This document shows positions 30,248-53,228 of a DNA stretch of 64,000 nt, in pieces. A program made the position numbers and the translations under genes. The stretch covers positions 444 to 64,443 of the forward strand of contig JAITFK010000023.1 in assembly GCA_031281555.1 (NCBI GenBank). The letters are read 5' to 3'. Under the pieces are notes generated by a model, which saw only the letters and a list, made by a program, of their open reading frames with translations, had not been told where the DNA came from and did no database searches. Origin of the DNA: Treponema sp. Its GTDB lineage: Bacteria; Spirochaetota; Spirochaetia; Treponematales; Breznakiellaceae. Numbering within the stretch: position 1 is the first letter of the stretch; each line of letters starts with the position of its first letter.

Positions 30248-30282
30248 TTACCGCTCCAAAATAAAACCGCCGGTATTGCCGG

Positions 30283-33754: not shown

Positions 33755-35506
33755 TTAAGACGCGATTATTTTTAAAATGGCATCGCCTTGTAAATCCTCC
33801 GGTTGAATCGCATAAATAGAGGTAGAAGAAGAAATGCGTTTCATGTGATTATCCGAAATTGGAAAAGCGGATATAAGAAGTCCCTTTGCCGCAATGCCGC
33901 CGTAGATTTTCAGGTTATTTTCAAGTTTTTGTATATGTTCCTGTTTTATTCCGCCCACCTTACACTCAATAAGCCATAATCTTTTGCCGTCAGTAAACGC
34001 GCAATCAAATTCACCGACAGGTATTTTTTTACGTTCTTGTAATTGATCAACATAATTTACTTCCAATCCTATACGCAAATCACAGATATTATTTTTTTGT
34101 TCAAGATTACGCAATAAATCGAAAACATATTCCTCGAACCAGCCGCCGCCAAGGTATTGTCCGAAATCATCGCAATCCGGCGTTGAAATTTCTTCGCCAT
34201 TTATGTTAAGAGTTGTTGACATATTAATATCCAAAGAAGCATGAGAATTTTTCCATTTCCAATAAAAAGGCTGATTAGGTGTTTTTTTACATTGATTAAT
34301 GTATTTCTGAAAATCCTCGTTTTTGTAAAGCACCCTTATGGTTTCCCTGTATTCCCACAATTTCCGGGTAACATTGAGTCTTGTCTCGCGGCAAGGTCTA
34401 TTCTCCCATTTTCCCTGTGTTATAACAGAAAATCCGTTAATAGCAAAAAAGTTCGTAACGGATTTGATACCGACAAACGGAACAGTTGAACCGTCGCGGA
34501 TGTATATAATATCATGATTGTTTATTTCAAAATAAAAAGGTTCAAGCCCGTGCTCCCAGCAGGCGGATAACGCTCCGGCAAACATCAACTTTGTTCCGCC
34601 TGTCATGTTTACTGCAACTTTAGTTTCCTTTGAAAAACAAGCGGCTTGTTGTAGAATTGCTTTTCTTGTGTCTGCCGGTTTAAAAGGGTTATTAATTATC
34701 ATGACGGTATTACCGCCTTCTGAGGGAATTAATTTTGACAATGTGTCCGCAGCGTCGGCATATTCCTGTGTAGTAATAAAAATATGTTTTCTCGCCTGAA
34801 ATTGAATCATTCCAAAATAAATCGGCATTCGCTCGCGTCCAAGCAAATGAATAATAACATCATAAACGGACGGTTTTTCGGTTTGTACAGCGGCGTGCAT
34901 AGGCTGTAACAAATCTATCGGCAGTTCAATTTTTTCCGGCGGTTTACGCGGGTCGGAACTGGAAATGACGCCTATGTTAAGCTGAGGATTCGTTCTTGCG
35001 ATTAACGCCCAAGTGTAAGCCATCACAGGCGTTCCCGGGCTTACAAAACTTGTCAGTGTTTTTTCACTGTTGTCGTCTAAAACGAGTTTTAACGCCGCCG
35101 CCGCCGCTTTGTAAATCCCGTCCGCGTCGTTTAAATGTTTTAATTCTTTCGGTACAATTTGTAAATTGACGTTTATTCCGGCGGCGGCAAGTTCAAATTT
35201 TAACCATTCAATGAATATTGTGTGTCCGGTTACGGTATTGCTTACGGCATCAACCAATTGCTGAGTTTTTTCACGCGGGAATGCAGAGCGTTTTTCAGGC
35301 GGTTCATTCAGCCATTTTTTCCACTCAATGCGGAGATCGTTCGAAAGGGAGTTTGGGTCTTTGGCCGGATTTGTATACGCAAGAATAACGATATCAGTGT
35401 AATCTTTTGTTTTAAGCGCCCCGAGAATCGGGCCGTCTGTTTCCTCAAGACCAAGCGAGGCTTTGAGGTCTGTGATGCCGTACCATGTTAACAAATAGTG
35501 TTTCAT
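33755..35506 (-). CDS. Dual-CARF protein (RtcR-like CARF + Card1/DUF1887-like CARF) with C-terminal PD-(D/E)XK nuclease
   Basis: LLTWYGITDL...GPI and FVSPGTPVM (RtcR-type); VNMTGGTKLM (second CARF); GGWFEEYV...EFDC...LIECK. Confidence 0.8.
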   Translation of the reverse strand: MKHYLLTWYGITDLKASLGLEETDGPILGALKTKDYTDIVILAYTNPAKDPNSLSNDLRIEWKKWLNEPPEKRSAFPREKTQQLVDAVSNTVTGHTIFIEWLKFELAAAGINVNLQIVPKELKHLNDADGIYKAAAAALKLVLDDNSEKTLTSFVSPGTPVMAYTWALIARTNPQLNIGVISSSDPRKPPEKIELPIDLLQPMHAAVQTEKPSVYDVIIHLLGRERMPIYFGMIQFQARKHIFITTQEYADAADTLSKLIPSEGGNTVMIINNPFKPADTRKAILQQAACFSKETKVAVNMTGGTKLMFAGALSACWEHGLEPFYFEINNHDIIYIRDGSTVPFVGIKSVTNFFAINGFSVITQGKWENRPCRETRLNVTRKLWEYRETIRVLYKNEDFQKYINQCKKTPNQPFYWKWKNSHASLDINMSTTLNINGEEISTPDCDDFGQYLGGGWFEEYVFDLLRNLEQKNNICDLRIGLEVNYVDQLQERKKIPVGEFDCAFTDGKRLWLIECKVGGIKQEHIQKLENNLKIYGGIAAKGLLISAFPISDNHMKRISSSTSIYAIQPEDLQGDAILKIIAS

Positions 35507-35522
35507 TGCAAACTCCTTTTAA

Positions 35523-38500
35523 TTAATCATTCTCGTTATCATTGTCATTGTTTGATACGCCGGTGATACGAATCGCGTTTGCGCCGCCATCGCCGGTAAG
35601 ATACTGACGCAAAGCGTATAACAATGGAGGAGTACGATCACCTTCCGGTTTCGGAATGTCGAGTTGAATACGTGAAAAAAGTCTAATCCTTGATTGCGCA
35701 CATATTCCCACGACATTTTCAACTTGATCCGCCAATTCTTCGGTAACTTTTTGACGTGGCCACAAGATCATTTTGATTTCCGGATCTGACGATTCACGGG
35801 TGCGTAACAAGCCGAGCAGAAGTTCAAGCGGTTCGGCGGTAGAGCGAACCCAGTCGCGAACAGTCTCTCTGTTTTTTTTATCTTTTTTTGGGGGACAAGG
35901 CTTAACTTGTGAAAGCATTTCCTTAAGAACTTTCAGTATTGATTCAAGCTCCATAAATGAGAAATTATTAATAAAATTTTGTTCATGCCAGACGGTATAA
36001 GCAAAAACTCGTACAGCTTTCTCTGTCGGAGTTGATTTAAGTTTTGACAATATATCATGCTGCCATTCCTGCGACACGTCGCCAAGCGCGAAGCCGATGG
36101 CGCGATACTCACGAGATTGATCGTTTTCGACTTGCTGCATAATCCATTTAATGCAATTATTCTTTGTGTCTTTATGAAGGGAGGACAGTAGTGGCATTAA
36201 TCTTTGATTAAAAATATTTTCCGGAAGATTCTTTGACAGCATTGAAATTAATTCGTTAAACTTTTGTTTAAATTCAAGCGGAGCGTCCTCATCATTCAAA
36301 GAGCGGTTGTCAGCCCAAATTATCGGCATTCTGTTTTGCAGGCTTTTCTTCTTGAAATTACTTAATTTCCATTCTGCCCCTTTTGGAAGATGTTTTAATG
36401 TAGGCTTGGGTATCCGCTCATTCCATTTAGTTAACGACTCAAGTAACCAATTTAATAAATTAATTTCTTTACCTTGTATATCCTTCCAACATTCCAAATC
36501 TTTCCAAGATAAAGGCTTCGGATATTTTGGAGCAGGCGCATCAGTAATTTCTTCTTCTCTTTCCCATTTTGCCTTGACCGGAGGGAATTCTTCTTTTAGC
36601 GGTTCAAATACAAGACAGTATGGATCATCATCACCGTAGGTAAATGTCAAATTCAATTTGCAAACGGTATCTATATCAAGCGGGAATACAGGTGATTTAA
36701 GTTTTGCGGAGAATCCGACTTTCTCGTCGTTTTCGCCCTGCAAAAGTGGAAATTCATAAAATCGCTTTCCGGCGGGAAGCGTGAAGTTATCTTTAATTTT
36801 AATTGGAACAGGCTTGCCACGGATTGGTTCTATAATCGTATTACGCGAAACGAGATTATAATATTGGTAGCGTTCGCCAATCTTCACTTTGATTTTAAGT
36901 TCAGGCATATGATCACGCCAGAGCGGGATGTCTCCCGCCCTTTGTTGCAAATCATGAAAACGGGATCCGCCAACAACGGGGCTTTCAAAAAGATTAATAA
37001 GAAGACTAAATTGTCCGATTCGTTCATTCTTTTTAAGTATGTCAGGATTAATAAATTCAGGTGCTGTTGGCTGTGCTTTATCATACCAAATGCCTTTTTC
37101 ATCAACAGTGATTATTTCATAGTTTTTTAAGTCCGTACCATCAGGATCATTGTCAGAAATAATTACCGGGGGACAGCGTTCCCAATAATAACCCTTAGTT
37201 TCCGGAATGCGATCAATGAGTCTTTTATCTTCATCAGAGCGGGCGATGAGTTTTGTAGCGCAGGTTTTTCCGCCGATAGTATCAACAACCACAACGGTGA
37301 ATCCCTCGCTTATTATGGAATAATCAACCTTCTCAAAGACGGCCGCTACGCTTCGGGGCAGTGGTTCCGCTTTTGGGAAACTGGCATTGATGTTACGGCG
37401 GATGAGTTCAAGTTCAAAATCATTAAGAAAATCCGGAACCAGCCAAATGAGCGTACCGTCTGTAAAAGTTTCATGAAGTTTCGACGCAAAAGCACGGGCG
37501 GCTCGGTCAAGAATATGTATGTCTTTCTTTTCTTTGGAGAAGAAAAGATCGGCGAAAGAAATCGTCGCTTTAACATCGGAATGAAGAAAAACAGCATCTG
37601 AATTGAATAGTTCGAGGTTAAAAGTTTTATCTTTATTATTATCCCAATGCTGCCAAAGATAAGTTTCATTTAAAATACATGGTTTATTTTCTTCATATCC
37701 TTGTGAACTATTTTTTGAAACGAAATAACGCGGACGCAGGGCGGTAAAATCCACACAGACAGGTTCAGATATTTTTTCTGTTGTAAAATGGCGGACAATC
37801 TCTTTTTTTCTCTTTTGGAATACAAGAATTTCTCTAGGAATTTTCCAGGGAATTTCCTCAGGAATTTCCCAGGGTTTAATTTCAAATTTTTCATAGTCAA
37901 AGTAGACCGGCATATCGACGAAAATAAAATGACCATCAAAATATTTTTGTCCGTATCCGTATTCATAACTCCAGCGATATATTGTTTTTCTGCGGGCTTT
38001 AAAATCCAACAAGTCCTTATTAATGTCATCATCAAGCGTTTGCAGCCAACGCCAGGCGTCCCAGATACGGCGGTAATCGCGGTGCGACAAAAGAGTGTTG
38101 TTTGGCGGAAGGTTTTCCCAACGGCCTATGCTTTTCGCCTTGTCTCCAAGAAGCCAGGATTTGATTTTTGGAAGCAGTTCGTCTTCTTCTTTTTCTTTAA
38201 GACAATCATAACGCAATTCAAACAATTCAGCCAGGCGGGTAACGAACTCTTTCAAAAGACGATTTTCCGGAAGATCGATTGATTGAAAACGGCGTACAGC
38301 GTACAGATAAGGTTTGTCTTTAAGTTTTTCCCGGATGTTACGGCCCGGACGGTTACTTAGTTTGATAAAACTGTTTACATCCAATTCCCGTACCGCCCGG
38401 ACAGGCAATAACTCTTGTTTGCGGCGAGGACTTTCGTTGAGCGAACGGAACACACGCTTAACTGATTCGCGGGCATGATCTGCTATGCGCCAGAGGCGAT

Positions 38501-38798
38501 CATGAATTATTCCGTCATCCGGCTCCGCCATTTTAGCGAGGAATGTTGACAGAGGTTGCGGAAGCGGTTTGTTTGTTTTAGGGTCAAATTTGGCATTGAC
38601 ATAAAACCAGTTCATCTGTTCAAGAAAATCATGGGAAGCCCCGTCTTTTTTTCCAGCCTTCTCCTCCTCCTCATAAGAACGGTAAAGTTCAATCAAAGTC
38701 ATTTTTTTGAGGCTTTGCTTGAGTTTCTTTTTTAACCGTTTTCGAGTGTTTTTACCAGCTTTTATTTGAGCCGCTTTATGAGTTAATTTTTGAGTCAT
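35523..38798 (-). CDS. DUF2357 (McrC-like) protein fused to Hsp70-like and helical domains (CoCoNuT CnuCD-like)
   Basis: VRELD, DLPENRLLK.F, PPNN.LL.H.DYRRIW; then VCVDF, VPDFL.DF, PLPRSVAA, VVVVD, LWRDHMPEL, FTLPAG. Confidence 0.7.
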   Translation of the reverse strand: MTQKLTHKAAQIKAGKNTRKRLKKKLKQSLKKMTLIELYRSYEEEEKAGKKDGASHDFLEQMNWFYVNAKFDPKTNKPLPQPLSTFLAKMAEPDDGIIHDRLWRIADHARESVKRVFRSLNESPRRKQELLPVRAVRELDVNSFIKLSNRPGRNIREKLKDKPYLYAVRRFQSIDLPENRLLKEFVTRLAELFELRYDCLKEKEEDELLPKIKSWLLGDKAKSIGRWENLPPNNTLLSHRDYRRIWDAWRWLQTLDDDINKDLLDFKARRKTIYRWSYEYGYGQKYFDGHFIFVDMPVYFDYEKFEIKPWEIPEEIPWKIPREILVFQKRKKEIVRHFTTEKISEPVCVDFTALRPRYFVSKNSSQGYEENKPCILNETYLWQHWDNNKDKTFNLELFNSDAVFLHSDVKATISFADLFFSKEKKDIHILDRAARAFASKLHETFTDGTLIWLVPDFLNDFELELIRRNINASFPKAEPLPRSVAAVFEKVDYSIISEGFTVVVVDTIGGKTCATKLIARSDEDKRLIDRIPETKGYYWERCPPVIISDNDPDGTDLKNYEIITVDEKGIWYDKAQPTAPEFINPDILKKNERIGQFSLLINLFESPVVGGSRFHDLQQRAGDIPLWRDHMPELKIKVKIGERYQYYNLVSRNTIIEPIRGKPVPIKIKDNFTLPAGKRFYEFPLLQGENDEKVGFSAKLKSPVFPLDIDTVCKLNLTFTYGDDDPYCLVFEPLKEEFPPVKAKWEREEEITDAPAPKYPKPLSWKDLECWKDIQGKEINLLNWLLESLTKWNERIPKPTLKHLPKGAEWKLSNFKKKSLQNRMPIIWADNRSLNDEDAPLEFKQKFNELISMLSKNLPENIFNQRLMPLLSSLHKDTKNNCIKWIMQQVENDQSREYRAIGFALGDVSQEWQHDILSKLKSTPTEKAVRVFAYTVWHEQNFINNFSFMELESILKVLKEMLSQVKPCPPKKDKKNRETVRDWVRSTAEPLELLLGLLRTRESSDPEIKMILWPRQKVTEELADQVENVVGICAQSRIRLFSRIQLDIPKPEGDRTPPLLYALRQYLTGDGGANAIRITGVSNNDNDNEND

Positions 38799-38827
38799 TT
38801 TGAATGCTCTTGCGTTTCTCCTTTACT

Positions 38828-41137
38828 TTAATTTGTTTCTTCTTCGGGCTTGTCTGGTGTTGAATTATCCTCAAGATAGTTTGCTGTTTGCCACATGAAC
38901 TGTCCGTAACCAAGTTCGCAGGCTAGTTCGAAGTCTTTGGCAAGATTAACAGGTTTATCGCCAATAGCGGTGTTGTTGATTAGTCCACGGATTTCCTCGA
39001 GACATTTGCCGCCTTTACTATTTCTATGGGTATCTATACCGCGCAGTTTTGGCATGACCTTCTGGACGAGCTGGTCTTCAAACGCTTTATGCATTGCGTC
39101 GTCAAGTTTAAAATTTGTTTCCCCATTCTTCGCGGCGCGGACTTTGGGATAGTTCGCCATATAGTATTCGATTGACTGCCATACCCTGTGCCCGATAGCG
39201 CGGCCCGCAACTGCCAGATAAGAATTAATTTTTTCAATATACTCTTTATATGGCGCAACATTATCCTTGATGTTTGAAACGTCTTTTTCCCACCAATTCT
39301 CCCAGTTTCCCCGAGGTAATGGTGAGAACTTATGAAATTTCTTCAAGTCTATTAATTCTTCACGGCTCTTTAATTTTACAGGACGCGGAAAGTGAATGAT
39401 GATAGAGCGATCCAAAACCTTGTCAGAAAGTGATTTTGTAGTTTCATCCTGGTTCATGGTTCCCGTCCAAAGAACATTACGGCCCAGGGGAAGATCATAA
39501 GGTTTCATCCCGGCGCCAATTTTAACAGGAAGCGAAGGCACTAACCCTTTCATTCCGCGCCGCAGTTCGAGTTTGCTCAGGAATTCCGCGAAGTAGAGTT
39601 CCGGATGGGCAAGATTCATTTCATCAAGCAGGACAAGGCAGACCGCGTCTTCCAATCCTGGATAGATCACCTGTGTTTCATTGCCATCTATTTTTTTTTC
39701 TTCCCATTTCTTCTGACTTTGAGCGAGTAAATGCAGTACAGGCTGAGCGTCGAATTTATTGTCAATTGAATTAAAGAAGCCAAGCATGGATTCCTGACTG
39801 TCCCAATTTGGCTGGACGGAGAGCGGCTCAAAGTAAAGACCGCCAAAGTGTGAGTACAGGCGCGGCAATTCGGATTTGCCTGTGCCTGATACGCCTGCAA
39901 GAATTGTTAACGGAGACCATTCCGAGGTTTTTAGCGCCGTATGGAACGCGTATAAAATACGAGAATTAAAATGCATTCCATATTCTTCACATTTTCTGCT
40001 AACACCCTCAAGCCAGTCAATCTCAGCAAGAACATTCATCTTGTTTATTCCCTTTGCCTCATCTGCATTTTTTGGTTCCTGTTTTTTATACTCCGGCGGC
40101 CTTTGTACTTTATCATCCCATGGTTTTTCGATTTCTTTATATCTGGCCTCAACTTCCGCGGGACGTTCATACGCCGCGCGAAGGCGATCCAGTTCGGCTT
40201 TGTACTCATTTGCCGCGTTTTCAAAAAGAGATGCCTTTTGCTCAAAGATTTTGTTCTCCGCTTCTAATCCGTTGTTTCTTAGCCGTAGGTCGTCAATTTC
40301 CGCGATATCGTCTCTGTTAGCGTCAATTTGTTTTTTGCGTTCATCCGCCAGCTTTGTTTGCCGTTCAACCTCCTTTTTAATTGATTCATACTGTTCGCGC
40401 ATTTCTTCGGTAGGACGGGTGGCGAGTTCTTCTCGAAGTCGGTTAAATTCGACTGCTTTGCTGTTGAGTTCTCGGATTACTTCAGCGGGATCTTTACCAT
40501 TGAGTTGCCGTTTCAATTGCTCTAAAGCGCCGGCAAGATCAGTTTGGATACGGAGGCTGTCGCGCAGACGGACAATTTCGTCTTTATATGACTGCCTTTC
40601 AGTTTCAAGTGATTTGCGCTCTTTTTCCAGCAGGGCTTCCAGCTTGTCATCCAACTCGTTATATTTTTTTTGCCATTGGTTTTCAAGAAGCTCTCCCTTG
40701 CGTTCCAGAATTTTTTCCGTAGTTTCAAGGTCAGTTTTGCGATTCTGGAGATCGCTCTGCTGAGCGGATATCGCACCTTTTTGATTTCCAAGTTCATTCC
40801 GCTCTACGCTCAGTTGTTTCCGCGACTCTTCAAGTTCTTTTCGCCACTCTTCCCGCTCTATGACAATTTCCGCGTGAATATGATCGCGTTCGGCTTGTTC
40901 GGCTTCTGCAACTTCATCCAGTCGTTTAATTTTAAATTTTGCGATTTCTTCTTCTAATACCGAGAGTTTCTTTTCGCGGGTCTCTGAAATCTCAGTCTCC
41001 AGTTTAATTCGTTTGTTATGCAATTCACCTTCCGCTTCTCTTTGGCGAATATAAAATTCTTCCTCACGTTTTTTTAAGTCCGCTTTTCCATCGGCAATTT
41101 GCCTCAGTAAAGCTTCTAATTTTGAAAATAATCCCAT
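38828..41137 (-). CDS. Coiled-coil McrB-like AAA+ GTPase (CoCoNuT CnuB-like)
   Basis: ~320-aa E/K/R-rich coiled coil; GVSGTGKS, VQPNW, LLDEMNLA, GTMNQDETT..LSDKVLDRS. Confidence 0.85.
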   Translation of the reverse strand: MGLFSKLEALLRQIADGKADLKKREEEFYIRQREAEGELHNKRIKLETEISETREKKLSVLEEEIAKFKIKRLDEVAEAEQAERDHIHAEIVIEREEWRKELEESRKQLSVERNELGNQKGAISAQQSDLQNRKTDLETTEKILERKGELLENQWQKKYNELDDKLEALLEKERKSLETERQSYKDEIVRLRDSLRIQTDLAGALEQLKRQLNGKDPAEVIRELNSKAVEFNRLREELATRPTEEMREQYESIKKEVERQTKLADERKKQIDANRDDIAEIDDLRLRNNGLEAENKIFEQKASLFENAANEYKAELDRLRAAYERPAEVEARYKEIEKPWDDKVQRPPEYKKQEPKNADEAKGINKMNVLAEIDWLEGVSRKCEEYGMHFNSRILYAFHTALKTSEWSPLTILAGVSGTGKSELPRLYSHFGGLYFEPLSVQPNWDSQESMLGFFNSIDNKFDAQPVLHLLAQSQKKWEEKKIDGNETQVIYPGLEDAVCLVLLDEMNLAHPELYFAEFLSKLELRRGMKGLVPSLPVKIGAGMKPYDLPLGRNVLWTGTMNQDETTKSLSDKVLDRSIIIHFPRPVKLKSREELIDLKKFHKFSPLPRGNWENWWEKDVSNIKDNVAPYKEYIEKINSYLAVAGRAIGHRVWQSIEYYMANYPKVRAAKNGETNFKLDDAMHKAFEDQLVQKVMPKLRGIDTHRNSKGGKCLEEIRGLINNTAIGDKPVNLAKDFELACELGYGQFMWQTANYLEDNSTPDKPEEETN

Positions 41138-43101: not shown

Positions 43102-46100
43102 GGCATTACCTTCCCTTTTTCACGGCATAAATTGAAAAAATTAACCAGTCCTGGAATGTATTTCCTTGCAAGGCTGTTATTCAATAAACCGGAATCACCG
43201 GCCGCTACCAGCAGTTTTTTCTGGCGGCTCATGGAAACATTCAAAAGGTTATCAAGGCAGAGGCGTCCAAATAATTTCCTCGCCTGTTTTTCAGGGTCTT
43301 CATCATTCTGTTTCCAGTCCTGCGGTAATGATCTGACCATGGAAAGAAAGACCACATCAAACTCCATGCTCTGGAAAGAATCAACCGTACCAACGTGAAG
43401 TCTTTTTTTATCATGCCTAATTCCTTCAAGATGTTCTTTAATGTGATCGGCCTGAGCTTTGTAGAACGAAATAACTCCGAAAGACAAGTTTTCTCCTTCT
43501 TTGGAATTCATCCATATTTTTATCTGTCCGGTAATGGCGGTTATTTCGGCAGGGCGAATCAGACTGGTTCCTTCCCGCTGATACCTGCCTTTTGAGGCGG
43601 GAATATCCAGCCAAACGGCAGGTTTGTTATCAGTACCCGACAAGTTGTGTTCAAAATCGCCTTCAGGTCTGCTTGAACGGAATTGTTCAGACTTGTCATA
43701 AAATTCGCTGCTGATAAAGTCTCCCAGAAGCGGATGCATACGGTGTTGTTTATCTAATGTGATATGACGCGTAATGCCGTCTTTCTTTTCTAATTCCTTA
43801 AGCCTTTCAGAGAATAAATATTGGAACATGGATTTTTTCAGCCAATCAACTTTTTCTTCTCCCGTCTCCCCTTCCTCCATTTGGCGGGCGACTTCGTCGT
43901 TAATGATATGCGGCAGCTGACGGTGATCTCCGACAAGAATAATACGTTTGCCCTGCGCCATAGGGATCATAAGATCGCGCGGAGAAACCCGGGCGGCTTC
44001 ATCCACAATCACATACTCAAACGGTTCCATCTTCTTTTTTTCTGTGACGCCTTTTTTATTTTGCATTAATATATTGACACTCTGTTGGCAGGTAGCGGCG
44101 AAAGCATAACTATAATCCGATACGGCATCAATCATACCATATTGATTTTCTTCAAGTTCAGCCAGGAATTCCGCAAGCGCCGCTGATTTTTTATCTTTGG
44201 CGGAAAAACCAGTCTCTTTAATTTTCTTGATTGCTTTTTCAGCCAGCATAAGAATTTCATCGTTTTGTTTTTCTACGCTAAATACAGGCGGAGCGGTAAT
44301 CTTAAGCATAAGTTTCTTTTTCAGCACGGCTAAATCTTTCAGGAACGGCGGAGAAACAGCATTATCAATCCATAAACTTGCCATGGACAGCAAGTCCCAC
44401 TCGTCTTTTTCAATTTCATTTTTTATTTTTTCATCATTTTTTAATTTTCCAAAGGCTTCAGCCGCCCGATCCGGTCCGTCATCAGCAAAACTTTCAGTAC
44501 GGATACGCAGGCGGTGCACGGCGTCAAGCAGCGGATTGGATTCACTGTTAAGAGTTTCTTCATGCGAGAGTCTTTTGGCAATATACGCGGTGCGGTGCGA
44601 AATATCTTCCCCTATAATTGTAACATCAAGAGAAGCAATTTTATTTGCAAGATTCGCAGCAAGCGCCCGCGTCGGCGCATTAATGTATTGCAGGCAGAGA
44701 TTTTTAATTTCCATTTCTTTTTCTACTTCTGCGATATTTAAATTTTTAGCGCGTAGTTCATTGGTTGTTTTTTCATAAAATTTCATCATTTCTTTTTCAA
44801 AGGCGCTATCATCGTTTTTATCGGCTCCTGAACGTTTCCCGAATTTCGGAATTGGTATGCCGTTAAGCCAATAACGATTTATCATATTCTCAACCGCGTC
44901 ATGCTGGAATCCGGTTAACAAAACCTGACCATTAATATTTATTTGCCGTTTGTCCGCAAGCTCATTCAAGCGTTCAAGAATTGCGGCAATAATAGTGGTC
45001 TTGCCGGTGCCCGGAGGTCCCTGGATAAGAGCGATGTCGGGCGTCGACAGGGCTATTTTAATTGCGTTTATTTGATTTTCAGTCGGCTGATATTCTCCGA
45101 AAACTTGTTTACGAACAAACGCCGTAAGCGTTTTTATTTCAGGCGGTTTGCAAGCCGGAGGGATATCACCTTTTTCTTCTATTATAAGGCCAAGATGCGT
45201 ACAAGCACAGCGGCCTTCAAGTATTGCCTTGCGCGCTGACCTTCGCCGTTTTATTTGTGTGATTTCACCTTTAAGCGAAAGAACGAACATTCCCGACGGA
45301 GGCGGCATCTTTGTTTCAACTTTAAGTTTTTTTGACTCCAAGTCATAAATTGTAAGAATTTTTGAATCGTTGTCGTAACCGGAAATCCTGAAATAAAGGC
45401 TTTTCTTCTCCTCTTTTCCCTGTTTCCCGATGATCTTTTCTATTTTTTCTTTCTTTTCAACATCTTTTTCAATGCCATTCACGAATTCCGCAAATTTTAA
45501 ATCTGCGTTTAGAAGATAATCCGGTAATTCATCAACCATTTCTATTTCTTCCACGCCGCCTGACTTCAATGCATTTTCAACTGAAGCTCTCGGTTCTAAA
45601 ATGCGGACAGAGACATCTCCGTCATTTTTCTGTTTGACATCACAATAACGCAGTACGTCAATATAACGAGCACGCTTTAGCAAAAGTTCGCCTTCAAAAT
45701 CGCCGAACTCGTCCCATTTCTTCAGGTAACTTCCCTCATTATTAATAAGATTGTTCATTTGCGCTTTGGTGAGTATCTGAATCTGCCCTGTCTTTGTCCA
45801 ATCGATAAATTTTAATTTTCCTCTGGCAAGACGCAGCGCCCTGTCGTTTTTGTCTTTTAGTTTGGTCAGACGGGTAGAAATATAAATTGACTTCCCGTCC
45901 GGCAATTGTGTTTCTGTGGCGACGAAGCGGATATTATCGCCTGTGATACAGAACGAGTTCTTTCTGGTTGGCTCAGGTTTTGGGGCGGAGACTTCGGGAT
46001 TTAATTGAGGCTCTTCAATATCAATGTTTTCATCTGTTTTCTCCATTGGATTATCTGCGTCTTCCTGATTATCTTTTGTTTCTTCTTCTTTTGCTTTCTC

Positions 46101-46592
46101 CTCCGACTCCGTTTTCAATTCGTCATCAATTGCTGGACCTGCGATGATAAAGAAGAAAAATTCATTACCGTGAAAAAAACAACAGCGAGTTTCAAGGTAT
46201 TTATAAAGATTCTGACCGCTAAGTTTACGCCCAACTTTCTCAATCATTTTCTCCACATATTCGTCCACGCCGACTTCAACATCTCCCATCTCCAGACATT
46301 CACCTGTAAAGAATTTAATTTGCAGTTCAATGCTACCATTGGCAGCCACGTTAGCAAACTGCGAAATCATAGCTCTTCCCGCAACAAGTTCATTGCCCAG
46401 ACGGCGGACATCTATCTCTACAACCGGCTTAACAAATATGACAGTATCTTTAAGACGAATTTCAAACTCACCCGGCCGTGTCGGACAGGCTTTAACGCCA
46501 AGAACCGGCTGCTCTTTCAAAAGCTTTGGGGAAAAGTCGGTTCTTTTGACGCGTATGGTCGTTGTATCAGCGGGAATATCGTCAAATTTCAT
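43092..46592 (-). CDS. UPF1-like superfamily 1 helicase (CoCoNuT CnuH-like)
   Basis: QGPPGTGKT, VDEAAR, GDHRQLP, QHRMHP, TVDSFQSMEFD, LNVSMSRQK. Confidence 0.88.
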   Translation of the reverse strand: MKFDDIPADTTTIRVKRTDFSPKLLKEQPVLGVKACPTRPGEFEIRLKDTVIFVKPVVEIDVRRLGNELVAGRAMISQFANVAANGSIELQIKFFTGECLEMGDVEVGVDEYVEKMIEKVGRKLSGQNLYKYLETRCCFFHGNEFFFFIIAGPAIDDELKTESEEKAKEEETKDNQEDADNPMEKTDENIDIEEPQLNPEVSAPKPEPTRKNSFCITGDNIRFVATETQLPDGKSIYISTRLTKLKDKNDRALRLARGKLKFIDWTKTGQIQILTKAQMNNLINNEGSYLKKWDEFGDFEGELLLKRARYIDVLRYCDVKQKNDGDVSVRILEPRASVENALKSGGVEEIEMVDELPDYLLNADLKFAEFVNGIEKDVEKKEKIEKIIGKQGKEEKKSLYFRISGYDNDSKILTIYDLESKKLKVETKMPPPSGMFVLSLKGEITQIKRRRSARKAILEGRCACTHLGLIIEEKGDIPPACKPPEIKTLTAFVRKQVFGEYQPTENQINAIKIALSTPDIALIQGPPGTGKTTIIAAILERLNELADKRQININGQVLLTGFQHDAVENMINRYWLNGIPIPKFGKRSGADKNDDSAFEKEMMKFYEKTTNELRAKNLNIAEVEKEMEIKNLCLQYINAPTRALAANLANKIASLDVTIIGEDISHRTAYIAKRLSHEETLNSESNPLLDAVHRLRIRTESFADDGPDRAAEAFGKLKNDEKIKNEIEKDEWDLLSMASLWIDNAVSPPFLKDLAVLKKKLMLKITAPPVFSVEKQNDEILMLAEKAIKKIKETGFSAKDKKSAALAEFLAELEENQYGMIDAVSDYSYAFAATCQQSVNILMQNKKGVTEKKKMEPFEYVIVDEAARVSPRDLMIPMAQGKRIILVGDHRQLPHIINDEVARQMEEGETGEEKVDWLKKSMFQYLFSERLKELEKKDGITRHITLDKQHRMHPLLGDFISSEFYDKSEQFRSSRPEGDFEHNLSGTDNKPAVWLDIPASKGRYQREGTSLIRPAEITAITGQIKIWMNSKEGENLSFGVISFYKAQADHIKEHLEGIRHDKKRLHVGTVDSFQSMEFDVVFLSMVRSLPQDWKQNDEDPEKQARKLFGRLCLDNLLNVSMSRQKKLLVAAGDSGLLNNSLARKYIPGLVNFFNLCREKGKVMPCL

Positions 46593-47950
46593 TTAACTAC
46601 CTCTTCAAAAATAAAAGCAAGATTTTCCGGAAACGGTTTTGTCCCCCGGACAGGTTGTACGGATTTTTTCGTAAAGTCTAAAAGCGCGTCATACTCTGTA
46701 TCATCATCGTTATGTTCAAAAGAGAAGGGGTTGAATAAACGATGCGGCAAAGAGAATTCGTTCGTGTCAGCGGAAACAATAATTTCCCAACGCTGCGTCT
46801 TTACTCGGACAAATGCCGGGCGCGGCTTGGCACAATACGGACATTTTTTATGGCTGTCCGCGAAGTAACTCATTTTGCAATTAGGGCAAAGCAGCGACTT
46901 GTCAGAGGCTCTTGTTAATTCAAACGCCCAAAACGCCATAGACGGACGCCGGTGCGGTTTTGTCCGCCCTGTGCCGAAAGTATCCTGAAAAAGCAGCCTT
47001 AACTCCGGCGTTGCCGTAAGTTCGCGCGGCAGACCGCAGACTGAGGCATTTGAATCGTCATCCTTATCATCAACGAAGGGCAGAAAACCGGCATAAGCTT
47101 TTTCATTCAAATCGTCGGGCGCTCCGTCCGCCGCAGGTTCGGCATCCCAGCCGTTTTCCTCATCGTTAGGTTTCAGTACATTTTTACCTATGAACGGATG
47201 ACATAAAGCGATTGTTGTAAAAGCCAGAACCGCAAACGCCCAGCAATCTGTGCGAGGGCGGGATTGATCCAGCCCCCGGATTATTTCCGGCGCGCCGTAA
47301 TGAGGCGTGTAAACTGATTTTCCGCCTTTAGCCAATTCAAAACGCAGGTTGTCCGCGTCGATCAGCCAAACATCGAACTTCTCCCCTTCGTCGGCAAATA
47401 CATTCTCCGGCGATATATCGCCATAAACCAGACCGGCGCAGTGGAGACGGGCAAGAATCGAAGCGCATTTCGCAAGCGCATAAAGACGGCGGCGTGTTGA
47501 ACCAGTCTGGGCATAGTGAAAAAGATTCAAGGCAAAGTCTTTGTCGGGAATATTCATCAGCCATTGGGGAAGCGGCTGTTTGTCAAGTTCAATTTTTGTT
47601 TTTCCATTTAAGTTAAAATGACTGAACGGTTTCATTCCGTTCAAAAGGCGCATCACATACCCGGGCTCATCACCCGGCTTATCCCGTAAAATAGCGAGCG
47701 GCATTGATATAGGGATACGCGGCGGCAATGGCAAAAGACGTATGTTCTGGAAACGTTTGCGTAAACCCGCGGTATTATCAAGTTCTCCGGCGGCGTTTAA
47801 CGGTTGTTTGACAGCCAAATCGTCATCACTAGTACGGTATACAACGCCTTGTCCGCCGCGGGCGAGTTCCCTGCCCAGACAGTGCAGGTAGTCATATTCA
47901 TCGGCAAGATGCTTGGGAGATTCAACGCCGGGTATATAACGCTTATTCAT
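46589..47950 (-). CDS. Ser/Thr protein kinase with C-terminal Zn ribbon (TerY-P triad)
   Basis: LARGGQGVVY, LAVK, YGDISPEN, IDADN, YGAPE; CPNC...CPYC; ATG overlaps the PP2C stop. Confidence 0.88.
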   Translation of the reverse strand: MNKRYIPGVESPKHLADEYDYLHCLGRELARGGQGVVYRTSDDDLAVKQPLNAAGELDNTAGLRKRFQNIRLLPLPPRIPISMPLAILRDKPGDEPGYVMRLLNGMKPFSHFNLNGKTKIELDKQPLPQWLMNIPDKDFALNLFHYAQTGSTRRRLYALAKCASILARLHCAGLVYGDISPENVFADEGEKFDVWLIDADNLRFELAKGGKSVYTPHYGAPEIIRGLDQSRPRTDCWAFAVLAFTTIALCHPFIGKNVLKPNDEENGWDAEPAADGAPDDLNEKAYAGFLPFVDDKDDDSNASVCGLPRELTATPELRLLFQDTFGTGRTKPHRRPSMAFWAFELTRASDKSLLCPNCKMSYFADSHKKCPYCAKPRPAFVRVKTQRWEIIVSADTNEFSLPHRLFNPFSFEHNDDDTEYDALLDFTKKSVQPVRGTKPFPENLAFIFEEVVK

Positions 47951-48662
47951 CTTCCGGCTCCCTGCGAAAAAGGCACGCAATGGTTTTGTCATCGCTGTGC
48001 TTGGGCACAGGCCAGTCCTCAAGCATTATCCGCGTATTGCGCGAGGCGGACACGCAGGCTGAATCAACGGCGTGTGTAATAAACCCGCGGATAAATGCGT
48101 CGGTATCCGTTAAATCGTCTGAAACGCCGTCTGTGCAAAGCAGAACGGCGCGGCAAAGTTCTTCCTGTAAGGTTTGAAACCGCCACTCTTTGTCCGTGGT
48201 TTTTTCTGAAAGCGCGGACGTAATATTTGAAAAGCCGTTCGCTTTATCTTCGGCAAGCGATAAAACCGTGTCGTCATTTTTCAGAACAGCGATTAAGCCG
48301 TCGCCGAGCATTCCCGTTCTGATCAATCCGTCGGAAAGCCGAAAGGCGAACAAACAGGTAGCCGAACAATCACGGGACTCAAGCGGAGCAATAAAGGAAA
48401 GCCAGTTGCTTTTAATTTTGTCATACAAAAATGTTTGATCTATTTCTTTTTTATCGCGGCAGGCGTAAACTGCGCAAGTCACAGCGCGGCAGGCGGCGCT
48501 GCTTCCGAAATCGGAATAAGTTTTTGAACCCAGACCGTCGGAAACGATGACACCGTCGCCCCATGTGTTATGAAACGCTTTCCACGCGTCCTGATTTGGT
48601 TTGCCTTCCCGAATATGACCGGGACCAATGACGCTTGCGCCAAAACTTTTCCATAATGTCAT
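47943..48662 (-). CDS. PP2C-family phosphatase (TerY-P triad)
   Basis: SVIGPGH...NQDA, VSDGLGS, LGDG, CTDG, DDKT. Confidence 0.9.
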   Translation of the reverse strand: MTLWKSFGASVIGPGHIREGKPNQDAWKAFHNTWGDGVIVSDGLGSKTYSDFGSSAACRAVTCAVYACRDKKEIDQTFLYDKIKSNWLSFIAPLESRDCSATCLFAFRLSDGLIRTGMLGDGLIAVLKNDDTVLSLAEDKANGFSNITSALSEKTTDKEWRFQTLQEELCRAVLLCTDGVSDDLTDTDAFIRGFITHAVDSACVSASRNTRIMLEDWPVPKHSDDKTIACLFRREPEDE

Positions 48663-48673
48663 GTAACGCCTCT

Positions 48674-49120
48674 TTAATTCCAGCCGTCCAGCGCGGCGAA
48701 TAAATCCTCGGCGGAGAATACGTCCTTTCCTTTTAGGCTTGCGTCAGCGCCAATCTTTATGACGCGGAGTGTATCAGGCATTAACTTCCTCTTCCATCGT
48801 TTCAAATCCGTCTCATCATTACGCGTCCAGAATCCGTCTGTGAAGAGCAGAACCTTGCCATCAATCTGTTCGCCCAATAGTTCAATTAACGCCTTGGCGT
48901 TTGCCGCGCCTTTACAGTCAAGCATTTCTTCCGGATATTCATTGTCAGAAACCCATTCGACAATCCGCGCTTCATTGCTCCATGCGATCAATTTAATTTC
49001 CCCTTTGCCGTATCCAAGGCGGAAATACTGTTCAATTGTCCGCGCCATGCCGCGCGTAATAAAACACTTTCCGCCTTCCGACATACTGCCGGATATGTCA
49101 CAAATCAAATAAAGAGTCAT
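48674..49120 (-). CDS. Short vWA-domain protein
   Basis: MIDAS CDISGS, LFTDG, IKIGADA; RBS-like AAGGG upstream. Confidence 0.75.
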   Translation of the reverse strand: MTLYLICDISGSMSEGGKCFITRGMARTIEQYFRLGYGKGEIKLIAWSNEARIVEWVSDNEYPEEMLDCKGAANAKALIELLGEQIDGKVLLFTDGFWTRNDETDLKRWKRKLMPDTLRVIKIGADASLKGKDVFSAEDLFAALDGWN

Positions 49121-49163
49121 ATATCAGCGCCCTTCGCGTCAGGATTTCCGTCTGTTTGAGCCA

Positions 49164-49883
49164 TTACCAGTAACCTCCGTCTTCTTCAGATGAATTTGAT
49201 GATGCCGGAATATTATTCGGATTTTGCGATTTGCTGCGGGTGGTTACCGACATTGTCACCTTGCGGAAGAACTCGCGTATATTTTTCGCGTCCGCCGCTT
49301 GAAACACTTTATTCGGGACTTTATTGCCGTTTACTTCAGCCAGTACCGGAGTTTGGGAGATGAACTTTTCAAGAACCTTTGTGCCCGGCTCTTCCCCTAT
49401 ACCCATTGCCATGAAAAAACACTTGGAAGAGCGGCCGTCGGTAATTAAAGATTCCAGCGGTCCTTCCCAACTATCGGTCGGCGCTCCGTCTGAAACCAAC
49501 ACCACCGTCGGACGATACGCACGGGATGGTATGATCTCTTTGTCTTCTATCAAAGTTTTTGCTTTTAAAAACGCTTCCCCCATCGGCGTACCGCCATCAG
49601 CCATCATGTTCGTCCATTTTACAGTCGAGGCTGTTGTCGGCATAAGGAAGTTATTCGCCGTACCGCCAAAGGTGATTATTGAAACCAGAAATTCAGTCTC
49701 CATTTTTTCTTCATCGGCAAACGAATCAATCATTTGTTTGACGGCTTCATTTAAAACCTGAATCTTCGATGATTCGCCCCCGACGCCTTCATTCATTGAG
49801 CCGCTTACATCCAGCAAAAGTAAAACCGGTAATGGTTTTGCTTTAGATACGGTGAATTTGGTTGGATCAAAAACAGTTTGCAT
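49164..49883 (-). CDS. TerY-like vWA protein
   Basis: LPVLLLLDVSGSM, GGTPMG.A, YRP.VVLVSDGAPTD; AAGGAG RBS before ATG 49883. Confidence 0.88.
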   Translation of the reverse strand: MQTVFDPTKFTVSKAKPLPVLLLLDVSGSMNEGVGGESSKIQVLNEAVKQMIDSFADEEKMETEFLVSIITFGGTANNFLMPTTASTVKWTNMMADGGTPMGEAFLKAKTLIEDKEIIPSRAYRPTVVLVSDGAPTDSWEGPLESLITDGRSSKCFFMAMGIGEEPGTKVLEKFISQTPVLAEVNGNKVPNKVFQAADAKNIREFFRKVTMSVTTRSKSQNPNNIPASSNSSEEDGGYW

Positions 49884-49943
49884 AATTTTCTCCTTTTCGT
49901 TATAATTTAACATACCTTTATATAGTCTGAAATAAAAACAATC

Positions 49944-50825
49944 TTAACTATTTTTCCTGATTTTTTTTATAAAAGTATTAATTGTACGGCTTGCACTTTC
50001 CTCCCTAACACCGCAGGATTCTGCTATTTCCCTTGCTGTAGGAACAGTACGGTTTTCTTTGTAGCCTTCAAATATTTGCCTATTTATAAAGGAAACGCCG
50101 GAAATGACCTTTTCTATAAGCCTTATATCGCCCAGGGCCTTTAAAACTTGCGCTGTTAAGAGTTTAGAGAGAATCGGTTTTAACCGATCCTGCTGTTTTT
50201 GAAACGCCGCGTCTATAGTCTGAAGATAAGTCTTTACGGCCGCTTCATCTGTCAAAACGTCATTCGGCGAACTTGTTTTGTCGGCAATTAAATCGAATAA
50301 TTCGCCCTTTTTGCCGTCTTTTTCCATTATTGGGACGCTGCCCGATTGAACATATATATCCCGGTTTATCGCAATCGCTTCAAACGCTTTTTCGGGCGTT
50401 ATGTTTAAGACATCGGCGATTCTATTTACAAACCTGCTTTCATCAGGCTCCTCGCCGCATATTTTTTCATATTTAGCGATGTATCGGATTATTTGATCTG
50501 TTTTTTGCTCGAGCGTAATTCCGCTGCGCGTATCAGATATTTCCTCCTTAGCTTTTTGTGCAGATATTGTTTTTTTAAGCGCAGTATTAAAATAATTCAG
50601 GAAAGCGCCGCATTCAACTTTATATGATTTTATACACGCTTTTGCGGAAAGGACTATCTCATAACCAATTTTGCAAAAGTCTTTTCTTGTAAGCGATAAA
50701 AGCTCAGCGAGATCAGCAAGGAAACGCCTTTCTTCTACAATAAAAAGTTCTTTGTCTTTAATACGGTCTATTCTAAACAACGGGGATTCGTTTATAAGCT
50801 TTTCCAGTTCCCTGGGCGTCTTCAT
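49944..50825 (-). CDS. Divergent sigma-70 family (group 3-like) factor
   Basis: Region 2-like CIKSYKVECGAFLNYFNTALKK; region 3-like GEEP...IADVLNIT.EK...ELFDLIAD; region 4 HTH TAREIAESCGVREESASR. Confidence 0.6.
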   Translation of the reverse strand: MKTPRELEKLINESPLFRIDRIKDKELFIVEERRFLADLAELLSLTRKDFCKIGYEIVLSAKACIKSYKVECGAFLNYFNTALKKTISAQKAKEEISDTRSGITLEQKTDQIIRYIAKYEKICGEEPDESRFVNRIADVLNITPEKAFEAIAINRDIYVQSGSVPIMEKDGKKGELFDLIADKTSSPNDVLTDEAAVKTYLQTIDAAFQKQQDRLKPILSKLLTAQVLKALGDIRLIEKVISGVSFINRQIFEGYKENRTVPTAREIAESCGVREESASRTINTFIKKIRKNS

Positions 50826-50834
50826 TGACTATCT

Positions 50835-51455
50835 CTATTCGGAAAGTATTGTATCGAGTATTTTTAAGGCCGAATCACCATCTACGCACTCTAAAGTGTT
50901 AACAATGGAGTTTAGATAAAACAGAGCCGACATATCAAACAGTTCGGCATTGAAAGGCTTATTATCCTTGTTAAAATCAACCTTTCCGTAAATAATATTT
51001 TTGATATCCGCCTTGAAAAACCTCTGAGCAAAGTTTAGCGCTGAAAACATGATAATTGGCAGCGATTTTGTACCGTAGGTAATGTCGGCATAGACAGCCG
51101 CGCTTTCGACAAATTCGCTTAGTATTTCTTTGAATAGTTTTTCTTGTACTTCACGGCTCTCATTATGCGGCGTAGATAAAATACTGTACTCAATTTTAGC
51201 TCCCAGATTTGAATTTATTTTTTCAAGTTCTCTTTTATATTCACCGGTATTTCTGTCACTGTTACCGTTGATGTCTTCTTTCTTGAGTAGAACAACTTTT
51301 ACGTCGTCGTCTTTTCTTAATGTACAAGCCAGAACCCCATTAATGGGGAAAATTACTTCCCCATTGTATTCAATCGTGCTATTGCCGTTGACTTTATAAC
51401 AAAGAGTGTCAAGCCGATCTTTCATCATAATATTGCAAAAAACTATTTTTTTCAT
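50835..51455 (-). CDS. Stand-alone CARF-domain protein (TM1812/Csx1-N-like)
   Basis: VYADITYGTKSLP CARF motif, then AL.FA...IKNIIYG...DMS.L; AAGGAG RBS. Confidence 0.75.
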   Translation of the reverse strand: MKKIVFCNIMMKDRLDTLCYKVNGNSTIEYNGEVIFPINGVLACTLRKDDDVKVVLLKKEDINGNSDRNTGEYKRELEKINSNLGAKIEYSILSTPHNESREVQEKLFKEILSEFVESAAVYADITYGTKSLPIIMFSALNFAQRFFKADIKNIIYGKVDFNKDNKPFNAELFDMSALFYLNSIVNTLECVDGDSALKILDTILSE

Positions 51456-51972
51456 TTTATAGAAACTCCTTTGCTAACATGGCAGCTTTTTACTACTACC
51501 TCAAAAATTTTCATTGTTATTTTTTTTTACCAGATCATAATACTATATAGTAACAAATTTTGCTTAAATTAACACTTTTTTATAGAAAAACATATACAAA
51601 GTGCCTTCAATGACCATGGTATAAAAAATAGAAACTCTAAATTGCATATTTTACAACAAACTAATTTTTGTTTCAATTTGTATTTTTAGGTTGAAAGTGC
51701 AATTTGGTATTTACAAACAGTTTATTATTTCTCTGTTTTTGAAAATATGGCTTCCAAAAAGACGACTAACTGTTTACATCCTAAACCTTTGTTTGAACAA
51801 TTTCAAATTACAAAAATCACGTTATGCGTAGCTAAAAAAAATTTATCCTCAATTTTTAAAACAATCTTTTACTGAAAACATACAAATATTCTAAACCAAG
51901 AGACATGACATAAATGAGATAAATCTCAAGAGTGGATGACAATAGCAATGTAACAAACAACCTTACCTGCCA

Positions 51973-52000
51973 TTGACAATAAATCATTTTTATATAAAAT
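51973..52000 (+). promoter_or_regulatory. Sigma70 promoter of the MoxR-vWA operon, probably leaderless
   Basis: TTGACA-16nt-TAAAAT-7nt-ATG. Confidence 0.6.
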
Positions 52001-52007
52001 AAAACCC

Positions 52008-53223
52008 ATGCCTGAACAACCAAATCCAATATATAACTGGAATAAAAGCCAGCTTTTCAAACTATTATTCGGTCTTTATCACACAAAAATCCCCACAATG
52101 ATTTGGGGAAACCCCGGCGGCGGCAAGACCAGTACAGTTACCTTTTTGGGAAAAACTTTAGGTAAACCGACTGAAATACGCTCCGGTAACAAGTCCGATC
52201 CTACCGATTTTTCTGGGATTCCTTACTTAATCGACATGAAAAGCGAAGACGGAGGGAAAACCTTAAAATTTTCCGAACCAAAATACATACAGATAATGAA
52301 AGGAAACCCAGATGGTATATTATTCTTTGACGAAATAACAACCTGTTCCCCGGTAATTCAAGTTGCTCTTTTATCAATTATTCAGGATTGTCAGTTCGGC
52401 GAATTTGAAATCCCAAAGACAATATACAGAGTTGCCGCCGGAAATTATAACAATATAACCGGAACGCATAATATGAGCCTTGCCCTGATGAACCGTTTTT
52501 GCCACATCTTTTATAAAATGGATATAGAATTCTTTAATGAAGGGTTTATTTCTGACTTTAAAGGTTATGAAGAAGCCAAAATTAACAAGGACGAAGCTCA
52601 AATACATAAGGAGAACAAATACCGTCTGGCAGTTGTAAACTTTGTTAAACAGCATCCTGAATTCCTTGATGCTTTCCCTGCTGATGGAGCAATATCAGAC
52701 CCCCCATGAATTTGCGTATCCTACTCCGCGTTCATGGGAGATGGTAGTAAAAATCCTGTCGGTTCTTGACGAAAACGAACCTGTATATATAGAAGAGCTT
52801 GTAAAAGGGTGCATAGGAGATGCCGCCGGTAATTTATTTATCAAATTCATTAAAGATTATAAAGGGCTTGAAGTTGATATTCCCTATTTTGTAGGAAAAG
52901 AGAAGGATTTTCGTTTGCCTTACCCTGACAGCCATGATCATGTTTCTCAGATAATGGCTTCTGTTGTTTTTTATCTGGAACACGATACAAAAAAATACCT
53001 TGAACTCTGGATACAGGTTATCAAAGTTCTTCATAACGAAAATAATATCTACGGAAATTACGCGTCTTATGATAACCTTATAATGAAATATCTATTCTCA
53101 AACATGAAACATCTTTTGGACAGTAAAACTCTCGACCAAAAAGATATTCGCGAATTCAGTAAACGTATTCCGTGTTGGAATCTTTTACACATAACTGCTC
53201 TTGAAAAATATTCAAACAACTAA
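52008..53223 (+). pseudogene. MoxR-like AAA+ ATPase split by a +1 frameshift in a C6 tract (52700-52705)
   Basis: WGNPGGGKT, FFDEI, AAGN, ALMNRFCH in the first ORF; AYPTPRSWE in the second; deleting one C joins them as ..SDPHEFAYPTPRSW. Confidence 0.8.
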
Positions 53224-53228
53224 AGATA

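Follow-up and report, generated by a model that had tools for sequence, protein, structure and literature searches.

The stretch analyzed here is a 64,000-nucleotide (nt) segment of contig JAITFK010000023.1 from a Treponema sp. genome (the window), in which positions 33755..51455 hold 11 co-oriented minus-strand open reading frames (ORFs) without internal stops that make up a predicted CoCoNuT defense operon headed by a standalone CARF protein and a sigma-like protein (Table 1). The window's own genome, G000, comprises 2.49 Mb and is 83% complete; L and G labels denote comparison loci and genomes, and the window DNA is present in one termite-gut metagenome run. An earlier note on this DNA had called these 11 genes and their domains, and both hold: all frames are open over that span, and family scans agree with its CARF, sigma-like, vWA, PP2C, kinase–Zn ribbon, helicase, DUF2357 and CARF-nuclease labels. 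ORF-finder starts give intergenic gaps, 5′ to 3′, of 9, 30, 43, 11, −80, −4, −10, −22, 29 and 16 nt. The vWA1 gene probably starts later, at 49883, judging by an AAGGAG ribosome site, which makes the sigma–vWA1 gap 60 nt long and places a promoter motif within it; the kinase start also probably lies later, at 47950, and that of CnuCD perhaps at 38702, the position where homologs begin. Our main finding concerns the two 5′ genes, which the earlier note had added to the operon as extra regulatory genes: instead of mere extras, they form a conserved CARF–sigma module with its own promoter motif.

Table 1. Genes of the operon and sites of the promoter motif, in window positions.
Feature	Position	Strand	Remarks
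P1, GTTAAT-N18-TATAT	51545..51573	-	~90 nt upstream of CARF; 22.3 bits, second-best position weight matrix match in genome
Standalone CARF, CARF2 clade, 206 amino acids (aa)	50835..51455	-	DITYGTK motif II retained; predicted anti-sigma
Sigma70-family alternative sigma factor, 293 aa, regions 2, 3, 4	49944..50825	-	Profile, fold model, Foldseek
P2, GTTAAG-N18-TATAT	49920..49948	-	Overlaps sigma stop codon, points into TerY/vWA1; 23.3 bits, best in genome
TerY-like vWA1, complete MIDAS motif; likely start 49883	49164..49913	-
vWA2, short internal vWA of extended Type III-A	48674..49120	-	58% to L058 ortholog
PP2C phosphatase (TerY-P)	47943..48662	-	PP2C_2 5.4e-41
Ser/Thr kinase + Zn ribbon (TerY-P); likely start 47950	46589..48022	-	Pkinase 5.1e-9, two CxxC
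CnuH UPF1-like superfamily 1 helicase	43092..46592	-	AAA_11/AAA_12; Walker A/B intact; 57% to L058 over full length
CnuE winged helix-turn-helix (HTH)-2xHEPN	41116..43101	-	48% to NMY00742.1/OPK01847.1
CnuB coiled-coil McrB-like GTPase, NxD motif	38828..41137	-	58% to NMY00741.1/OPK01904.1
CnuCD (DUF2357; Hsp70-like + HEAT regions by homology)	35523..38798	-	53% to L058 ortholog
CARF-CARF-D-ExK Can2/Card1-like nuclease	33755..35506	-	Residues E499, D501, E514, K516

The first protein of the operon matches the PADLOC model CARF2--CARF at 4.8e-77 and TIGR02221 at 4.6e-14 (under cut-off), its motif II residues D124, T126 and K130 are invariant in 34 sequences, and profile comparison with the PDB identifies the CARF of Csx1–Crn2 (8Y75, 5.7e-5) as the nearest solved relative. 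By its modeled fold and its regions, the second protein is a sigma70-family factor: it matches TIGR02937 at 4.7e-7 (under cut-off), its profile finds SigA (6.3e-7), the SigF-type structure 1l0o (2e-6) and RpoS in the PDB beneath a designed repeat protein as the top row, and its model (pLDDT, the predicted local distance difference test, 88.5; Foldseek SigB 9.4e-5) has three helical domains matching region 2 (residues 3–98), region 3 (~106–160) and region 4 (195–293). Region-2 residues are conserved across 147 homologs, the family comprises 462 clusters at 50% identity with E-values up to 1e-10, and two of the sigma homologs are named Spirochaetia.

Pairing of the two genes is the rule across this family. 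A standalone CARF lies immediately upstream of sigma in 42 of 47 metagenome loci (four had no room and one lacked it), which are partly near-duplicates and so not fully independent counts, and directly 5′ of sigma in 15 of 19 genome copies (two with no room, one a CARF/sigma hybrid remnant and one without). In the reverse direction, six of seven further CARF2 genes are followed by a match to the sigma hidden Markov model, whereas an unassigned gene encoding 298 aa follows the seventh. From CARF to CnuCD, the window layout recurs in the complete genome G302, and 30 of 48 metagenome loci carry TerY-P and/or a CnuH-like helicase downstream (six carry other genes and 12 are too short), with 13 of the 48 reaching CnuB. 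CARF–sigma heads both Type III-A and Type II-like cores, and further contexts include MoxR–vWA pairs, a helicase–ClpB–radical SAM cassette, viperin and a type III-A CRISPR remnant. In a Victivallis III-A operon (L060/L132), an RtcR-like sigma54 activator immediately precedes the vWA genes, in the slot occupied here by CARF–sigma; among five sigma-less III-A heads examined this one alone has an RtcR-like gene, the other four having neither RtcR nor sigma. No sigma homolog was found in five genomes of close III-A relatives, in a search run without a positive control, and in turn G000 has no RtcR match and positions 49001–52100 of the window contain no match to the sigma54 consensus. Several variants accompany the module. 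A conserved 103-aa gene with no Pfam match, absent from the window, stands between promoter motif and CARF in many gut-metagenome loci (for example L018:9021-9332) and could be a third switch component; the sigma-family protein P0157 is fused to a radical-SAM domain; a viperin gene lies directly upstream of CARF–sigma in another genome (L096:13286-14101); and a type III-A CRISPR locus (L099:3155-11194) carries a CARF–HEPN gene, then a 242-aa hybrid of CARF N-terminus and sigma C-terminus that is probably a deletion remnant of the pair, then Csx20.

The upstream regions of the CARF genes share the motif AA(A/G)TGTTAAGT-N16-CTATATA. We scored the window's genome with a position weight matrix (PWM) trained on 25 sites from other, metagenome loci, and after P2 and P1 the next-best score in its 2.49 Mb is 18.2 bits; P2 is also the only exact GTTAAG-N18-TATAT match in the window. 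Genome sigma loci contain 13 PWM sites in 339 kb, all in same-family genomes, against none in the reversed control, and these sites lie in front of the CARF operon, at the sigma stop or before downstream genes. Sigma-less III-A loci, which mostly end before the operon head is reached, contain no PWM site in 634 kb, and neither do five sigma-less III-A operon heads. A strict form of the pattern is present in at least two copies in 4 of 218 family genomes, all four sigma-positive, and in exactly one copy in 28 of 208 others. Nine divergent-sigma loci from other families of the spirochete phylum have no PWM match, and eight of them show, by eye, a (G/A)TCAAC variant at the same places. An E-to-K change in sigma4 accompanies the GTCAAC variant in six of six rows, labeled by eye and drawn from few, related lineages, an association that is only suggestive. 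The sigma factor probably reads this motif. A generic promoter and terminator scan performed at chance level (40 vs 36.2 and 23 vs 23.1). Elsewhere, the islands L094 and L097/L119 carry four motif copies each, in front of separate operons whose genes, mostly unannotated or of TPR/Sel1, kinase and helicase type, are candidates for new defense cargo.

Structure prediction joins the two proteins directly. A model of two CARF copies and one sigma scores an ipSAE of 0.87, against 0.00 for the best control, with at least 94% of contacts shared between complex runs and a partner pLDDT no lower than 72. To our knowledge no CARF–sigma complex has been solved, so a high score from model memory seems unlikely. 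In the predicted interface, the C-terminal helices (residues 174–205) of both CARF copies clasp sigma residues 23–62 and 108–139. Sigma residues 54–67 lie just before the region-2.3 match to SigA and therefore correspond to region 2.2, the helix with which sigma factors bind core RNA polymerase, and residues 54–62 fall within the predicted interface. The model thus makes it probable that CARF binds sigma, and the coverage of region 2.2 suggests that CARF is an anti-sigma factor.

We favor, at somewhat better than even confidence, a mechanism in which a ligand-gated CARF anti-sigma switch induces the operon from its private promoter motif. With its C-terminal helices, the CARF dimer would grip regions 2 and 3 of sigma and, given the region 2.2 contact, block binding to core RNA polymerase. 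A nucleotide signal of infection could then bind CARF, twist the dimer and free sigma, by analogy with Csx1–Crn2, in which ligand binding is reported to rotate the CARF dimer by ~30 degrees. Freed sigma would fire P1 to express its own operon in a feedback loop and P2 to express the genes from TerY through the Can2-like nuclease. RNA targeting and phosphorylation gating of CoCoNuTs are predictions of Bell 2024 (PMC11090510; this and the other papers are cited from parts of their text), on which the GTPase–helicase–HEPN complex would cleave RNA and the kinase/phosphatase and CARF nuclease would add further levels of gating. A broader reading, in which the pair is a widespread, portable immune switch whose CARF is a ligand-gated anti-sigma answering a CRISPR-independent signal and whose dedicated sigma70 drives CoCoNuT and other defense cargo from a private promoter, we hold only tentatively, at a little below even; its signal would perhaps be RNA ends bearing a cyclic phosphate, produced by the HEPN RNase of the system itself.

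We searched comparison genomes for sources of the signal. No Cas10 over cut-off occurs in G000, G116, G034 or G302, none was found in G611 with the one model tried, and G508 has one; no SMODS cyclase was found in any of five genomes, including G000 and G302. The failure to find either in G000 and in the complete G302 weakens cyclic oligoadenylate (cOA) made by CRISPR or by CBASS (antiphage signaling systems based on cyclic oligonucleotides) as a universal ligand and favors, by analogy, the RNA-fragment signal proposed for RtcR-headed CoCoNuTs (Bell 2024). RtcB occurs in two of five genomes including G000, and so does not track the CARF–sigma module. An RNA cleavage product with a 2′,3′-cyclic phosphate, as for RtcR, is our tentative first choice of ligand, short of an even chance; cyclic tetra-adenylate (cA4) and some other molecule are each rather unlikely, and equally so.

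Several observations weigh against the proposed switch. On the side of the signal, the closest solved CARF binds cA4, the one remnant pair inside a type III-A CRISPR locus points to cOA, and the 83% completeness of G000 limits its negatives. As for the complex, the 0.87 mark was reached in calibration by 116 of 157 solved pairs and 2 of 215 mismatched pairs, counts that apply only roughly, as the complex job used custom alignments and a 2:1 layout unlike those of the calibration; a predicted contact would in any case show neither inhibition nor release. The motif evidence has its own weak points: the reversed genome also yields one match of at least 19 bits, so that the weight lies in the positions of the sites; the PWM training set includes close relatives (L002–L005); the strict pattern was written after the loci of five of the genomes counted had been seen, and it misses the sites of G000 itself and of three of nine other sigma-positive genomes; six "sigma-negative" genomes proved to contain a gene for a divergent sigma or a sigma-like protein, around which no PWM site lies; one-mismatch matches in the window alone number 4 against 1.7 expected, a count reached by 7 of 100 shuffles; and the −10 box of the motif resembles housekeeping TATAAT. 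No RNA runs containing window DNA were found. Finally, substitutions at conserved helicase and HEPN2 sites may mean that the core is weakened.

The cargo of the window module is almost certainly a Type III-A CoCoNuT. The 31 genome loci retrieved with a CnuE alignment all keep the order vWA2–PP2C–kinase–CnuH–CnuE, and those that extend far enough continue with CnuB and CnuCD (broken up in L064 and L074), so that the gene order is conserved in other genomes. According to Bell 2024, III-A is marked by a DUF2357–Hsp70 fusion (CnuCD), a tandem-HEPN CnuE, a duplicated vWA and a 2xCARF–D-ExK nuclease, the NxD motif defines the CoCoNuT GTPase branch, and TerY-P is frequent in Types II and III-A and never found in III-B or III-C; III-B is described there as having a Vsr nuclease fused to CnuH, separate CnuD and CnuA genes and no TerY-P. 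The P. veronii locus L058 has a CnuE cluster that includes NMY00742.1/OPK01847.1 and a CnuB cluster that includes NMY00741.1/OPK01904.1, accessions that neighbor the III-A exemplars NMY00740.1 and OPK01842-45 of Bell 2024, and the window proteins are 34–63% identical to their L058 counterparts. A quick tree unites the window GTPase with the exemplar-locus CnuB in a group of 26 rows (support 98), separate from Type II-like GTPases. Gene order, III-A marks, identity to L058 and the GTPase tree therefore assign the operon to III-A. The earlier note's assignment to Type III stands, and its suggestion of subtype III-B is ruled out by the TerY-P triad, the separate HEPN CnuE and the single CnuCD gene.

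Individual proteins bear out these labels to different degrees. CnuB carries Walker A GVSGTGKS, Walker B LLDEMN and the NxD motif within GTMNQDE at 559–565; by a crude composition test for coiled coil, its residues 1–330 are 65% E/K/Q/R/L/A with two prolines in 1–320, and this N-terminal part aligns with the coil of P. veronii CnuB. A Pfam scan gave no match for CnuE, vWA2 or CnuB. The CnuE HEPN1 motif R414-x4-H419 is invariant in 50 homologs, and in VIA-align comparisons the C-terminal CnuE model (pLDDT 89) resembles HEPN proteins (AF0298, Z 8.7, root-mean-square deviation (rmsd) 4.2, 122 aligned; Roquin, Z 9.8, rmsd 3.1, 135 aligned over model positions 26–390), with Z values that are modest for helical folds; Foldseek on the C-terminal model returned no significant match. 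CnuCD matches DUF2357 at 9e-5, just under cut-off, and its putative Hsp70-like region is assigned by homology, from the exemplar-locus ortholog, to which CnuCD is 53% identical. The terminal nuclease matches the CARF_Card1 and Card1 endonuclease families and Can2 in the PDB (7bdv, 3.1e-12).

Compared with the extended Type III-A systems of Bell 2024, the window shares the order vWA–PP2C–kinase–CnuH–CnuE–CnuB–CnuCD, the NxD GTPase, the duplicated vWA and the Can2-like nuclease. The extended forms (EssC, SpoVK or EccE3–HerA) place an ATPase cassette between two vWA genes, and paired vWA genes without the cassette are considered a possible vestige (Bell 2024); here the two vWA genes lie 43 nt apart with no EssC/WXG100 cassette between them. 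Both relatives scanned, L050 and L054, have an FtsK/EssC ATPase upstream of vWA2, and tblastn of a relative's FtsK against G000 gave a sole match of 194 aa at 31% on another contig. CnuCD likewise differs from the typical form in lacking the ~100-aa cold-shock-like insert present in 11 of 11 homologs shown; Bell 2024 describes this domain in "most" III-A members, so membership stands. The CARF nuclease ends the operon here as in L050, L057, L060, L069 and L077, and the head here is CARF2 plus sigma70, where the covered text of Bell 2024 mentions sigma54/RtcR heads only. CnuB was not found in 200 same-family genomes, which gives the core the look of horizontal acquisition; a single-sequence CnuB scan of the genome contigs gave no match.

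A first alternative accepts the switch as proposed and holds that the core behind it is decaying or attenuated, with defense lost. The earlier note had called the system intact, which is true of its open frames and catalytic motifs; it must be qualified by substitutions in CnuH motif V (G1075S, with G in 31 of 31 homologs), CnuH motif VI (R1116L, common to L003 and L004) and CnuE HEPN2 (R622S, with R in 45 of 50 aligned sequences and H624 retained), and by loss of the cold-shock insert. Decay would also account for Y950H in CnuH, the missing EssC cassette and a CnuB terminal branch of 0.59 against a median of 0.081 in the quick tree. Against it, no stop or frameshift interrupts 17.7 kb, and the catalytic motifs are all retained: Walker and NxD in the GTPase, those of the kinase, PP2C phosphatase and HEPN1, and D-ExK in the nuclease, together with the helicase Walker motifs. 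Moreover, R1116L and R622S are best read as clade features, since open homologs in L003 and L004 carry them and S622 is common to the closest clade, leaving G1075S as the one substitution of these three seen in the window copy alone; one DNA run agrees at this site but is possibly the source of the window sequence. We regard decay as unlikely.

Other alternatives reassign the roles of CARF and sigma. CARF could bind sigma as an activator or chaperone, the signal promoting sigma–polymerase assembly, as the complex model shows contact only and RtcR, the analogue replaced, is an activator; the predicted interface covers sigma residues 54–62, in the helix before the region-2.3 match that forms the core-binding surface, and the sigma partners in the CASP-sigma, CalpS and DdvS systems are all inhibitors, which makes this role unlikely. 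CARF could instead reset the Can2-like nuclease, acting as a ring nuclease or ligand sink, and sit beside sigma merely as the first regulon gene, since small standalone CARFs such as Crn1 are ring nucleases, the operon ends with a Can2-like CARF nuclease and a close PADLOC model is labeled type III-associated. This is quite unlikely, given that CARF and sigma travel together into loci where no CARF effector was seen (MoxR–vWA, viperin), that the modeled interface is strong and specific relative to controls, and that no cOA source was found in G000 or G302. Finally, a sigma-like protein turned repressor or operator-binding factor over a housekeeping promoter, no longer linked to polymerase, would suit its scores under family cut-offs and the nearness of the −10 box TATATA to TATAAT, but is very unlikely with regions 2, 3 and 4 all retained, region-2 residues conserved across the 147 homologs, and a motif that is bipartite with fixed spacer, not palindromic, and whose −35 box seems to shift with sigma clade.

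The anti-sigma switch that we favor resembles several known systems in part. RtcR-like CARF–AAA–HTH heads of CoCoNuTs belonging to Types II and III-A (Bell 2024; Makarova 2014, PMC4012209) likewise place a CARF sensor at the 5′ end, with a nucleotide or RNA signal predicted to drive transcription of the defense operon, and one occupies this slot in L132; in the window, a standalone CARF2 serves as the predicted sensor beside a separate sigma70-family protein with its own motif. In CalpL–CalpT–CalpS and Csx30–CASP-sigma (PMC11229360, PMC10028731), a defense sigma is held by an inhibitor and released on infection, as proposed here, and sigma binding motifs lie inside the sigma's own locus, as here; those systems are CRISPR-linked, with an ECF-like (extracytoplasmic function) sigma and a protease that cuts the anti-sigma, whereas no protease or CRISPR gene was identified in this operon, its sigma has region 3 and CARF itself is the predicted anti-sigma. 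The DdvA–DdvS anti-sigma/sigma pair of Myxococcus xanthus likewise switches on a whole defense island, DdvA being a transmembrane TPR–CHAT protein and DdvS an ECF sigma (PMC11506125), whereas for the window pair a cytoplasmic location and nucleotide sensing are predicted. Csx1-type CARF2 proteins and Crn1-type ring nucleases (PMC11317161, PMC12409355) share the fold family and motif II D-x-T-x-G-x-K; the window CARF has no fused HEPN effector, has motif I C-N-I-x-M in place of LGKG, and has C-terminal helices predicted to bind sigma.

The core is a published, predicted system, and defense under sigma control has precedents in CASP-sigma, CalpS and DdvS, which differ from one another in the type of inhibitor; this analysis ties CARF–sigma to CoCoNuT III-A and II, shows its exchange for RtcR in the head slot and adds the anti-sigma model. 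No description of a CARF–sigma70 pair was found in the literature covered, and Makarova 2020, Anantharaman 2012 and the III-A sheet of Bell Supplementary file 3 lie outside that coverage and may show it; the pair goes unmentioned in the covered parts of Bell 2024, Bell 2025 (PMC12458937), Makarova 2025, Makarova 2014, the BREX survey and the Adt1 preprint. A literature search for follow-up work found no experimental study of any CoCoNuT. CoCoNuTs are large predicted RNA-targeting defense systems, and a two-gene module whose promoter is defined would make it possible to screen for the ligand of their CARF proteins simply, by reporter or pull-down. If the model is right, anti-sigma activity would be a new output class for CARF sensors, the pair would be a sigma70 counterpart of RtcR that links a second messenger straight to sigma without a protease, and it would explain how a nuclease operon that is potentially suicidal could be held silent in lineages lacking an RtcR/sigma54 head. 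The sigma family is large and its cargo varied, so the motif could serve to find new defense operons.

The operon lies among other genes of interest. Divergent from CARF, positions 52008-54389 (+) encode a MoxR-like AAA protein as two overlapping ORFs (52008-52709 and 52642-53223) and a DUF2201 vWA/metallopeptidase; a paralogous set lies on contig C29, and CARF–sigma heads MoxR–vWA pairs in L110, L111, L112 and L114. Next to these, 54417-59070 (−) holds DUF4116, an IetA-like AAA ATPase (PADLOC 9e-27) and PcfJ-like genes at 29–35% GC, and in L140 a CARF–sigma pair stands upstream of DUF4116 and IetA-like genes. A BrnT–BrnA toxin–antitoxin pair occupies 59896-60466 (+), ~8 kb from the operon head; Bell 2024 places BrnT-like genes upstream of RtcR-headed CoCoNuTs. 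On the other side, an AAA_14–DUF4143 protein at 32381-33691 (+), matching the PADLOC candidate PDC-S01 (6e-163), converges with the operon end, and 29282-31209 (−) holds two tandem near-duplicate genes assigned from sequence as ABC sugar-permease-like.

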